From positions 1 through 51,026 of the IMG/VR virus record IMGVR_UViG_2671180890_000005: 51,026 bases of DNA; one strand, 5' to 3'. Below, one piece after another: positions 43,501-46,500 of the stretch; within the stretch, counting starts at the first letter, position 1, and every line of letters starts with the position of its first letter. The DNA is from a virus. Its lineage: Duplodnaviria > Heunggongvirae > Uroviricota > Caudoviricetes. The position numbers were made by a program.

Positions 43501-46500
43501 AAGGACGATTGGCGCAACTGCGACTCTTGGCGTATCAATGGGGCTTGAGGCTGGTTTCGGTGCAATGATGCGCTTGTATGAGTCCAAAGCAGCAAGGAAT
43601 GCTCTCTTACGTCTGGCAAACACTAAAGCTGGAACGCCAGCCTATGAAAGAGCGCTGAATAACGCTGCGAATGCCATCAGGCCGCTGCTTGCCACTGAGG
43701 CAACACAGCAGTAACGTATGGGAAATTGGATTCAATCGCTAACATTTTCTTTTTACTTTTCCAACAAAAGCTTTGGTTGAATCCATATTTCCATAACCGG
43801 AAATGGTTTTTGACATTAAAACTGTTCCAGTAGGATGTATTACCCATGAGTCGATAACGCGTTGAGTTTCGCCATTCGCGCCGATTCCTATGATGGAGTT
43901 TTTAGACAATACTTTGTAAGCCATGCCGCCCGCATCTGTCCCAGAATATGTGATGCTAGCATCTTCACCGCTTGTCTTAATGATGAATGTTCCACTAAAA
44001 CCATCTTCTTCCGGATGGAAATTATTTCGTTCTGAATAGCTTATTCCGCGCATATCTCCAACGACCCAGCACTCTGCTGTAGCCCCAAAAGATATGAATA
44101 AGAACATAGCAGCAAGAAATTGCTTCACACCAACCTCCTTAGTTTTGTGCAGGATACCAGATGATAATGTGTAGTTGGAGTAGCGCGGTTGTAATGCAAG
44201 CATTTTGTTTTGGTTTTATGCTTGCTTGTATGTGTGTACAGTGCATATAATGCAAGCATACATCACAACAAAGGTGCTTGCATTATGACTGAAAAGAAAA
44301 GTGGCGAAGGGAAAGCTAAGGGCGGGATCGCTCGCGCAAAGTCGCTGACTAAAGAGCAGCGTTCTGAAATAGCAAAGAAAGCAGCTGCTGCAAGATGGAA
44401 AAGTAAGATTCTCAGGGCAACTCATCGTGGTAACTTTTTAGATGATTTTGGCATTGATGCTGAATGTTATGTACTGGATGACGAGTCGAAAACTGTCGTT
44501 GTTACGAAAACTGGATTATCTCAGTTGCTAGGGATTGGTGAACATGCCAGGGATTTAGATCAACTGCTTGGCGCTCAGTATATGAGCAAATACCGAGATC
44601 TAGAATTGCAGCGAAAAATGGAAAATCCCTATAAATTTCAACTTACTTCGAAGTCTAAAACCGTTCATCAAGCGTTAGGTTATGACATTACAGCAATTGT
44701 TGATATTGGTAGGGCACTAATAGAAGCCAAAGATAATGACGATCTACCACAATCACGGTTAAAGGCAGCCGCCGCAGCACAGAGACTTATTAATGCCTCC
44801 GCTAAGGCGGGAATTAAGGGGGTTGCGTATGCGCTTGCTGGTTATCGTCCAGAAGTTCAGGCTGTCATTGACGAGTTCAAAGCGTTTGTTCGTGAAGAGG
44901 CTCGTCAATATGAAAAGGAATTTCCAGATGAGCTATACGAGGAGTGGTATCGACTGTACGGCCTGAATAGGCCAGAGAAAGGACGGCCTATTCGTTTTGG
45001 GCAGCTAACCAACATGCAGATATACACCCCGCTAGCAAAGAGTAAAGGTAAAATCCTTGAACAAATTAGAGCCAGCCGAGACGAGAACGGAAAACAATCT
45101 GATAAGTTGCATCTGTTCCTTTCTGAAATTGGTGTCAAGGCTTTGCGTCAGCATATCGGTAAGCTTCTTGGTGTCGCAGCGATGAGTGAGACAAGAGAAG
45201 AATACGAAAAAGGAATAGAAAAGGTTTTCGGAAGAATGAAACCAGAAATCTAATTATGAAACCCACCGTCAGGTGGGTTTTTTGTACAAATCCTTCAGCG
45301 TATCAAACACCATCTTCTTAACAAGTTCAGACTGCTCATCAGCGATGCGTTCCGCATCGTCTCGATAGCCTGAAATTTTGGATGGCTTTGATACAGCATC
45401 AGTCACTATCTGAACTAATTCTGAATTAAGAGAGCGGCCATTGGATTTGGCTCGCTGTTTTAGTTTTTCCTTTAATTCGTAAGGTAGCCGCAGATTAAAT
45501 TGCGGGTCATCTCTTCCCATTCTTGATGCCTCACTTTTGTAAGTGGATCGGCATCATATGATCTACTGGTTATATCCACAATAAGACCACTGTGGTCTCA
45601 ATGACGCATTGCCGTAGCCATGCTGCGGTGATTCCTTGTATCTGGAGCAAATTAAATGACAGACATTACAGCCAATGTGATCGTATCAATGCCATCGCAA
45701 CTCTTCACTATGGCGCGTTCTTTTAAAGCCGTAGCCAATGGCAAAATTTATATCGGTAAAATTGACACTGACCCTGTAAATCCTGAAAACCAGATTCAGG
45801 TTTATGTGGAGAACGAAGACGGCTCTCACGCTCCTGTTTCGCAACCAATAATCATTAACGCTGCTGGATATCCGGTATATAACGGACAGATTGCCAAATT
45901 CGTTACCGTGCAAGGCCATTCTATGGCTGTTTATGATGCGTATGGTGCACAGCAGTTCTATTTTCCCAATGTGCTGAAGTATGACCCTGATCAACTACGG
46001 CAGCAATTAGAAGACCCAGATGGAGCGAATAAATACCCAAAACTTCAGATAGCAAGATGGAGAGACAGTTATGATGTAAGAGGTTGGGGGGCTATTGGTG
46101 ATGGTGTTCATGATGATACATCAGCTCTATCAGAATTACTTTCTGTTGCAACAGGTGGTGAAAAGATAGATGGGCGAGGGCTTACTTTTAAAGTATCAAC
46201 TCTTCCAGATGTCAGTCGATTTAAAAATGCTCGTTTTTTATTTGAGAGAATACCGGGTCAGCCTCTTTTTTATGCTTCTGAAGATTTTATCCAGGGAGAG
46301 TTATTTAAAATTACAGATACACCGTGGTACAACGCCTGGACGCAGGATAAAACGTTTGTATATGACAATGTCATCTATGCGCCTTTTATGGCTGGAGACC
46401 GCCATGGTGTAAATAACCTCCATGTTGCATGGGTTCGCTCAGGAGATGACGGGAAGACCTGGACAACGCCGGAATGGCTTACAGATTTACATGAAAACTA

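Follow-up and report, generated by a model that had tools for sequence, protein, structure and literature searches.

The stretch of DNA analyzed here (51,026 nt, positions 1 to 51,026 of the IMG/VR virus record IMGVR_UViG_2671180890_000005; hereafter, the window) is a P22-like (Lederbergvirus-type) prophage. To the left of its mnt gene, the plus strand contains a gene encoding a 322 aa protein of the Pfam family P63C (positions 44285–45253), and an array of four short repeats is located directly before the start codon. In the first-pass annotation, the gene was placed at 44192–45253; the length of the product given there is correct, whereas the start is not, since 44192 is the start of the array and the ATG codon occupies positions 44285–44287.

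The presence of four 10-bp copies in alternating orientation before the gene, as originally described, was borne out by a motif search. The motif is ATGCAAGCAT/ATGCTTGCAT, and its copies follow one another in the order forward-reverse-forward-reverse over positions 44194–44283. Copy 1 (44194–44203) and copy 3 (44250–44259) are exact matches to ATGCAAGCAT on the plus strand. Copy 2 (44218–44227, minus strand) reads ATGCTTGCTT on the plus strand, and copy 4 (44274–44283, minus strand) reads GTGCTTGCAT, each with one mismatch. The start-to-start spacings are 24, 32, and 24 bp. At up to one mismatch, the whole window contains nine matches to the motif against 7.5 expected, yet four of them alternate within 90 bp, an event with a chance of about 1e-5 according to our own rough Poisson estimate; the array is therefore far beyond chance. 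Other copies in the window are at the chance level, and no phage-wide regulon was seen there.

The motif had been described as palindromic, but it is not a true palindrome: its centre (AA/TT) is asymmetric, so each copy has an orientation, and "alternating" is a meaningful description. In addition, the last copy does not overlap the start codon in the window but abuts it, copy 4 ending at 44283. The proposed scheme of a dimeric regulator bound to each palindrome is too simple, because the sites keep a strictly conserved orientation, a sign that they are recognized directionally, as two inverted pairs.

A sigma-70-like promoter is predicted to be built into the array. In the window, the -35 hexamer TTGCTT (44222–44227) can be read within copy 2, and the predicted -10 element TATAAT (44246–44251, plus strand) is located 18 nt past it, its last two bases being the first two of copy 3. 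As judged from the position of the -10 element, the transcription start would be at approximately 44258, a position spanned by copy 3. A Shine-Dalgarno-like AAGGT sequence (44271–44275, plus strand; AAGG at 44271–44274) lies before copy 4 and extends into it, and copy 4 occupies the interval from the ribosome-binding site to the ATG codon.

The geometry of the promoter was counted over 52 unique arrays. The -35 hexamer inside copy 2 is of the TTGCAT type in all of them (TTGCAT in 39, TTGCAA in 8, and TTGCTT in 5), and in 43 arrays TAnnnT runs directly into copy 3. The spacer between the -35 and -10 elements is 17 nt in 27 arrays and 18 nt in 19 (together 46/52). A Shine-Dalgarno-like purine run is found just 5' of copy 4 in 44 arrays, and the ATG codon overlaps the last 2 nt of copy 4 in 36 of the 52 related arrays. 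Relative to the predicted transcription start, the sites are located at about -58, -35, -3, and +21 (copy 4 at approximately +17 to +26), which is classic repressor geometry. The sites overlap the predicted core promoter in 43 to 52 of the 52 arrays. The operator-like character of the array, suggested in the first-pass annotation, is supported in outline: the array is conserved with the gene across phyla and overlaps both the conserved -35/-10 elements and the region of the ribosome-binding site and ATG codon.

Since an ATG in copy 3 and other in-frame starts are present inside the array, P63C genes are over-extended by gene callers. The longest open reading frame (ORF) in the window starts at TTG 44210, orf23 of the Salmonella phage ST104 (locus L104, 2417–3496) is annotated 12 codons too long, and cluster P0001 has a length of 339 aa. 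These cases flag a systematic mis-annotation of start codons that stems from ATG inside the repeats.

The gene had been regarded as one of unclassified kind; its product belongs to Pfam P63C (PF10546) and to phrog_2384. The Pfam match covers residues 199–286 (E 6.8e-14; 52.7 bits against a gathering cut-off of 26.1), and the PHROG match extends over residues 6–321 on profile positions 4–328 of 338 (E 1.7e-104). Pfam P63C is also matched by all 64 aligned homologs. The family comprises 1682 proteins at E ≤ 1e-3 according to a word-indexed search and 3289 clusters at 50% identity (E ≤ 0.001) according to an exhaustive profile search. The Pfam entry describes a 93-residue C-terminal segment with no function given and is named after p63 of the Myxococcus phage Mx8, which is also the top fold match in BFVD. 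The P63C domain was reportedly defined by Iyer et al. in 2002. A match with a known structural family, considered in the first-pass annotation as an argument against its proposal, was thus found in the formal sense only, as P63C is a family with neither an assigned function nor an assigned structure. No functional paper on P63C was found in the literature, and the three-part architecture described below and the linked array appeared in no paper found.

AlphaFold2 models of the P63C protein (mean predicted local distance difference test values 80 and 83) show three parts. Residues 9–39 form two basic helices containing a KGG...ARW motif, residues ~43–150 form a beta/alpha domain that is related, according to the hhalign program, to the N-domain of the phage protein BstA, and residues ~155–315 form a helical region that includes the Pfam P63C match. 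The lysine/alanine-rich N-terminus noted earlier is real, and it represents not a low-complexity sequence but the motif KGGxARAxxLxxExRxxIAKKAAxARW, conserved throughout the P63C family. This motif is also widespread in stand-alone proteins of 45–72 aa, where it is sometimes found in tandem (P0121–P0240; L101, 1078–1287); some sources label these proteins "histone H1" or "general stress protein YciG". A search with the N-terminal motif found only stand-alone small proteins and no other array-linked architectures. Fold matches in BFVD were enriched in Bro-N/AntA-type domains, each of them individually weak, and Pfam and structure searches gave no recombinase or nuclease match. The P63C protein plausibly binds DNA.

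The first-pass annotation made its proposal dependent on conservation of the copies in related prophages, and the array turned out to be conserved with the gene across phyla. A scan with one genome per species revealed 60 loci with homologs, the full-length ones being 42–76% identical. They belong to Enterobacterales, Burkholderiales, Xanthomonadales, Rhizobiales, Acidobacteriota, Myxococcota, and other groups; most of the 60 loci have the same four copies at the same upstream positions. Viral contigs also contain full-length homologs behind such an array, and the identities over all these sources range from 29 to 76%. The strict forward-reverse-forward-reverse array with spacings of 22–25, 30–33, and 22–25 bp is present in 58 of the 87 homolog-encoding loci, and an equivalent of copy 1 was found in 58/87 related loci. 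The 8-bp core TGCAAGCA/TGCTTGCA is nearly invariant in the 52 unique arrays. P63C is the sole gene always located beside the array, and clustering of the neighbouring ORFs gave no other universal partner.

Viral contigs were additionally scanned for exact matches to one inverted pair, which yielded 39 loci against ~0.3 expected by our own estimate. A P63C homolog, in some cases only 29–32% identical, adjoins the pair in 32 of the 39 viral loci (tblastn), and in two further loci (L082 and L089) a gene with the same N-terminal motif starts at the pair. In the phage ST104, the complete array is located right after the cI terminator and is followed by orf23, whose product shows 29% identity. Loci L065, L067, L078, L084, and L086 from viral contigs contain a single exact ATGCAAGCAT-N12-16-ATGCTTGCAT pair and no adjacent P63C gene. 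In L086, GGAGG is found in the spacer of the pair, which stands directly before the ATG codon of a 71-aa ORF; an integrase-like ORF comes next.

Some members of the family have altered sites. In an Acidobacteria subgroup with an extended N-terminus, TATACTTGCyCGGG inverted repeats serve as the presumed sites. The L0095 protein of the Stx phage 933W has no ARW motif and only a degenerate N-terminal motif, and its gene has ACGTGCAT repeats instead; the sequence upstream of it (L103, 2230–2420) reads ACGTGCAT...TGCACGT...ACGTGCATG, and the gene is located in the nin region, adjoining roi. In subfamilies at ~30% identity, the TGCAAG core is kept and the sites are rearranged. The sites and the P63C protein diverge together, with the operator variants tracking protein subfamilies. 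The simplest reading of this joint inheritance and divergence is that the P63C protein recognizes its own array.

The copies are interpreted here as putative protein-binding DNA sites, more likely than as RNA hairpins, because no covariation and no Rfam match were found. If the repeats acted as RNA, leader hairpins would arise from copies 1:2 and 3:4 (or from 2:3 and 1:4), and the ribosome-binding site and start codon would be masked by the 3:4 hairpin; translation would then be controlled, or attenuation would occur, possibly with the help of an RNA-binding protein. Indeed, strong folding is predicted for the full array as RNA (-44.6 kcal/mol, z -5.95), its four segments can pair in alternative ways, as in attenuators, and the 3:4 hairpin alone has an energy of -16.9 kcal/mol. 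In the window (44246–44287), the -10 sequence TATAAT and the ATTATG at the start codon extend the pairing of copies 3 and 4 to 14 bp, including the ATG region, although other family members do not generally show this extension. A variable within-pair spacer (12–15 nt) would be tolerable for a hairpin loop, and several of the variant combinations are G-U compatible.

However, the conserved -35/-10 elements between copies 2 and 3 would start the messenger RNA at the 3' end of copy 3, so that copies 1–3 would be excluded from it. In several Enterobacterales loci, a terminator is located 15–25 nt upstream of copy 1, so copies 1–3 are probably not transcribed with the gene there. In pair 1:2, 20 of the 32 variants break pairing, as do 34 of the 53 in pair 3:4, and no covariation is seen among the variable end positions (Fisher p 0.29–1.0). 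Complementarity stops at the conserved 10-mers, and both arms are conserved in primary sequence beyond what structure alone needs. The predicted messenger RNA leader is unstructured (z +0.94), and the Rfam search at a permissive threshold gave only spurious microRNA-type matches, far below the gathering scores, which arise from long inverted repeats. We regard action of the repeats as RNA as improbable.

According to megablast comparison with E. coli genomes and phages, the array, promoter, P63C gene, and terminator make up a mobile cassette of 1.16 kb (44126–45286, plus strand). The homology breakpoints at 44120–44126 and 45283–45286 are recurrent, with differing neighbours on both sides. The complete cassette was found in 45 of 5426 E. 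coli genomes, where its neighbours vary and include SieA, a 129-aa gene, and others. In the window, the cassette contains only the array, the gene, and the terminator. The array and the gene thus move together as a self-contained accessory ("moron") cassette of the P22-like prophage, and other P63C members are likewise found in accessory loci, namely, at the sieA position, downstream of cI, and in the nin region. The terminator-like hairpin AAACCCACC-GTCA-GGTGGGTTT with a subsequent T run (45259–45283) is common to the convergent P63C and mnt genes and shows weak sroH-terminator-like Rfam matches on both strands.

On the left, the genes of ejection proteins end with a gp16-like gene (41873–43714), which is followed by a small leftward gene of phrog_2651 (43739–44128/44203, minus strand). 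The intergenic region, for which a length of 94 bp had been given, depends on the start of this leftward ORF. The start at GTG 44128 is better supported, with AGGAGG located 5 nt upstream of it and the PHROG match beginning from residue 39 of the long ORF; the gene probably starts there and not at ATG 44203 within copy 1. With this start, the intergenic region is 44129–44284 (156 bp). The ORF 43739–44203 has a signal-peptide-like N-terminus, and the mosaic junction of the P63C cassette lies within the first codons of this neighbour. The NCBIfam search gave no family for the 322-aa protein and only a far-sub-threshold match for the leftward neighbour.

On the right, mnt (45269–45520, minus strand; Pfam Arc and Repressor_Mnt) is convergent to the P63C gene, in agreement with the first-pass annotation, and is present in the window without arc or ant. 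The idea that the 322-aa gene has replaced arc-ant did not hold, as an identical cassette adjoins mnt-arc-ant in the phage vB_EcoP-611R6. The P22 Ant antirepressor was considered as a relative of the product and rejected, the hhalign probability with Ant of vB_EcoP-611R6 being 3.8% and Ant-related Pfam matches being absent. A perfect 15-bp palindrome, AGACCACTGTGGTCT, is located at 45584–45598, between mnt and the tailspike gene (45521–45655), and resembles the P22 Mnt operator. With this palindrome in place, the site of Mnt action may now be immediately upstream of the tailspike gene. The latter (45656–48601) encodes the P22 head-binding domain and a complete endosialidase with End_N_terminal, beta-propeller, beta-barrel, tail-spike, and S74 chaperone domains. 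The polysialic acid (K1) capsule is the substrate that endosialidases cleave, and a tailspike of this type also occurs in the prophage CUS-3.

In 29 non-enterobacterial loci, the gene of an IS1-family DDE transposase is divergent from the P63C gene, and the array is located between them. The reverse strand of copy 1 provides the -35 element of the transposase promoter in these loci (TTGCAT-N17-CATAAT/TATAAT, read from the sequences), and the promoter is followed by a nearly leaderless ATG. The similarity between the IS1-linked loci spans one block of 2.0–2.3 kb, comprising the transposase gene, the array, P63C, and a small third gene. This third gene is convergent and encodes a product of 70–95 aa that ends in the KGG...ARW motif; examples of the three-gene block are L008, L009, L014 (3014–5300), L017, L034–L036, L043, L049, L056, and L083. 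The same cassette is common to prophage accessory loci and IS1-family transposon-like modules.

This setting would also suit a recombination or transposition site like Tn3 res, with P63C as a novel accessory protein that represses both promoters: the array lies between the genes in all 29 loci, the module is similar as one block, and copy 1 contributes to the transposase promoter. On the other hand, the P63C protein has none of the recombinase or nuclease matches mentioned above, and phage cassettes, including that of the window, contain no transposase. Consistent terminal inverted repeats were found neither around the transposase gene alone nor around the transposase and P63C genes together. 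The pairwise identities of the transposase and P63C are uncorrelated across loci, a result that is uninformative or mildly against long-term linkage. In sum, such a site seems very improbable to us. The only candidate element ends found belong to a Pyrinomonadaceae contig (L021), in which a 27-bp inverted repeat with 26/27 matching positions (2590–2616 and 5253–5279) flanks the transposase and P63C genes.

The sites could also be bound by some other factor, namely, a host protein, Mnt or C2, or, outside the window, the IS1 transposase or the small protein with the KGG-ARW motif; P63C would then be regulated cargo only. A regulator of this kind was the idea of the first-pass annotation, which named Mnt and CI. 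Both are unlikely, because the same array occurs in non-phage contexts and in phyla without those repressors and because the motif is unlike the Mnt-type palindrome; the palindrome at 45584–45598 is unrelated to it. To our knowledge, the array motif resembles neither the P22 Arc nor the C2 operators. As for a host protein, the array is retained over a range extending from Enterobacterales to Acidobacteriota and Myxococcota, across which no host repressor is known to keep one specificity. The small KGG-ARW protein attracts attention since the N-terminal motif of P63C is shared with the protein encoded beside it in IS1-linked modules. However, no such transposase is encoded in the window, nor is there a small KGG-ARW gene next to the cassette, and IS1-transposase loci without P63C contain no array, even when the KGG-ARW "histone H1" gene is present. 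The five viral contigs with a single pair and no adjacent P63C gene remain in favour of another factor, and the position of the pair in front of a small ORF in L086 indicates that the sites can serve other genes. On balance, we consider it quite unlikely that the sites are bound by a factor other than P63C.

The relation of the P63C protein to BstA bears on its possible function. BstA of the Salmonella phage BTP1 is an abortive-infection protein of 307 aa with a KilA-N-like N-domain, and self-immunity is conferred by aba, a 63-bp DNA element that spans the bstA start codon, bears direct CCCGCC repeats at its ends, and is particular to its own BstA (Owen et al. 2021, PMC8585504). A diverse P63C alignment was built from a representative search (50%-identity clusters) and compared with the BstA-family alignment using hhalign. 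The match had a probability of 90.0% (E 1.6e-6), and the reciprocal comparison gave 92.2% (E 5.8e-7), while the reversed-alignment controls gave 0.4–0.6%. It covers ~115–130 columns corresponding to P63C residues ~44–197 and BstA residues ~25–173, that is, to the KilA-N-like domain. Comparisons that used a single sequence or a shallow P63C alignment were not significant, and because the less diverse alignment gave a probability of 13%, support for the shared domain is only moderate. The C-terminal domains differ: P63C is found here, whereas in the precomputed annotation all listed BstA homologs carry PF26567. PF26567 was not found in the 322-aa protein, for which the Pfam scan gave P63C only (the same scan did not score BstA itself). 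P63C proteins thus appear to be relatives of BstA in one domain and not members of the BstA family.

Given this homology, the array might mainly provide self-immunity or act as a decoy, like aba, with P63C being an abortive-infection or replication-blocking defence protein. The sites amplified with prophage replication would titrate or switch off P63C, leaving the prophage itself unharmed, and autoregulation would be secondary. Such a role would agree with the similar size and two-domain layout of the proteins (322 aa and 307 aa for BstA) and with the location of family members in classic accessory loci. In particular, orf23 of ST104 sits between cI and N, exactly at the locus that bstA occupies in the phage BTP1, and aba spans the bstA start codon (PMC8585504), much as copy 4 is placed at that of P63C. 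But aba is cognate and differs between BstA proteins, whereas the P63C array is nearly invariant across phyla and would therefore allow cross-immunity, which defeats the specificity logic of aba. The difference in the C-terminal domains also stands against a decoy, as does the PADLOC analysis, which gave no family for the 322-aa protein at E ≤ 0.1. Finally, many members are located beside the IS1 transposase in non-phage DNA, and self-immunity during lytic replication would be meaningless there. An array that serves chiefly as a decoy is, in our estimation, rather unlikely.

The interpretation that we favour, with a probability of roughly 55%, is an autoregulated accessory cassette in which P63C binds its own array and represses its own promoter, possibly with a BstA-like activity. 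The protein would consist of a basic two-helix arm, a DNA-binding domain of the BstA-N/KilA-N-like type, and the helical P63C domain. Its gene would be transcribed from its own sigma-70-type promoter embedded in the four oriented TGCAAGCA-core sites, which the protein would bind as two inverted pairs, probably in the form of a dimer of dimers. Once bound, it would repress the promoter and keep expression in the lysogen low and buffered, and in the IS1-linked relatives the same sites would also control the divergent transposase promoter. The downstream activity of P63C may be BstA-like interference with foreign, competing DNA, the array marking "self" DNA. What the analysis observed are the sites, their conservation together with the gene in several phyla, the promoter signals inside the array, the limits of the cassette, and the homology of the central domain with BstA-N; the binder of the sites, repression on binding, and the biological role are the parts of this scheme that we infer.

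Several points weigh against an autoregulated cassette. Joint inheritance of a linked site and gene is no proof of their interaction. For an operator that served autoregulation alone, the strict orientation and the conservation of the 8-bp core across phyla are unusually tight, and some further function may lie behind them. Within pairs, the spacing differs by as much as 3 bp (22–25), which is awkward for a rigid dimer on both arms and therefore requires independent site binding or flexible linkers. The KGG...ARW motif is probably not the specificity determinant, because it is also present in stand-alone proteins unlinked to the array. The array promoter was not picked up by a generic promoter scan, as the -35 criterion of the scan was not satisfied. 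The link to BstA covers one domain only, at 90% probability, and receives no support from PADLOC. Finally, a literature search found no binding or expression data for any member of the P63C family.

A broader view can be put forward tentatively, although it is doubtful. P63C cassettes may form a large group of cross-phylum, BstA-related single-gene systems that travel on mobile elements, in which the TGCAAGCA array is both an operator and a "self" signal; foreign DNA would be sensed by the protein, or its replication blocked, in the service of phage defence in prophages and of copy-number or transposition control in IS1-linked modules. If true, this would provide the first function for Pfam P63C, and the BstA/aba principle would then also apply to a second C-terminal effector domain, in combination with a DNA element that is universal, not private. 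The array, the embedded promoter, the cross-phylum conservation, and the BstA link are described in no paper found. The analysis connects P63C, which is carried by such well-studied phages as 933W (L0095) and ST104 (orf23), with a cross-phylum DNA site, a built-in promoter, and the DNA-binding domain of BstA. These links open a concrete and cheap experimental route, for which the core change named is that of TGCAAGCA to TGCTCGCA.

Known systems close to the cassette include the P22 immI region. The cassette occupies the same neighbourhood, from gene 16 to the tailspike gene and adjoining mnt, and in both cases short symmetric operators overlap promoters. In contrast to immI, the array motif is unrelated to the Mnt-type palindrome, which occurs separately in the window, the array is found beyond P22-like phages, and in vB_EcoP-611R6 the P63C cassette is present together with arc-ant.

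The IS1-linked relatives are also comparable with Tn3, in which res is located between the divergent tnpA and tnpR genes and is bound by TnpR, both a resolvase and a repressor. Both have several inverted repeats as subsites within a short intergenic region between divergent genes; the subsites overlap both promoters and are bound, presumably also in the case of P63C, by the product of one of the two genes. The differences are that no serine- or tyrosine-recombinase domain was found in P63C in the searches, that the partner of P63C is an IS1-family DDE transposase, and that the copy in the window has no transposase at all.

The comparison with BstA concerns both the protein and its DNA element. 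In each case, a helical C-terminal domain follows the N-domain, the latter aligning to P63C residues ~44–197, the gene forms a single-gene accessory cassette in P22-like prophages, and a DNA element is located at the gene start, aba spanning the start codon and the P63C array standing likewise at the beginning of the gene. P63C proteins differ in having an extra basic N-terminal arm with the KGG...ARW motif, and their array differs from aba in being composed of four oriented 10-mers that are near-invariant across phyla and carry the promoter.

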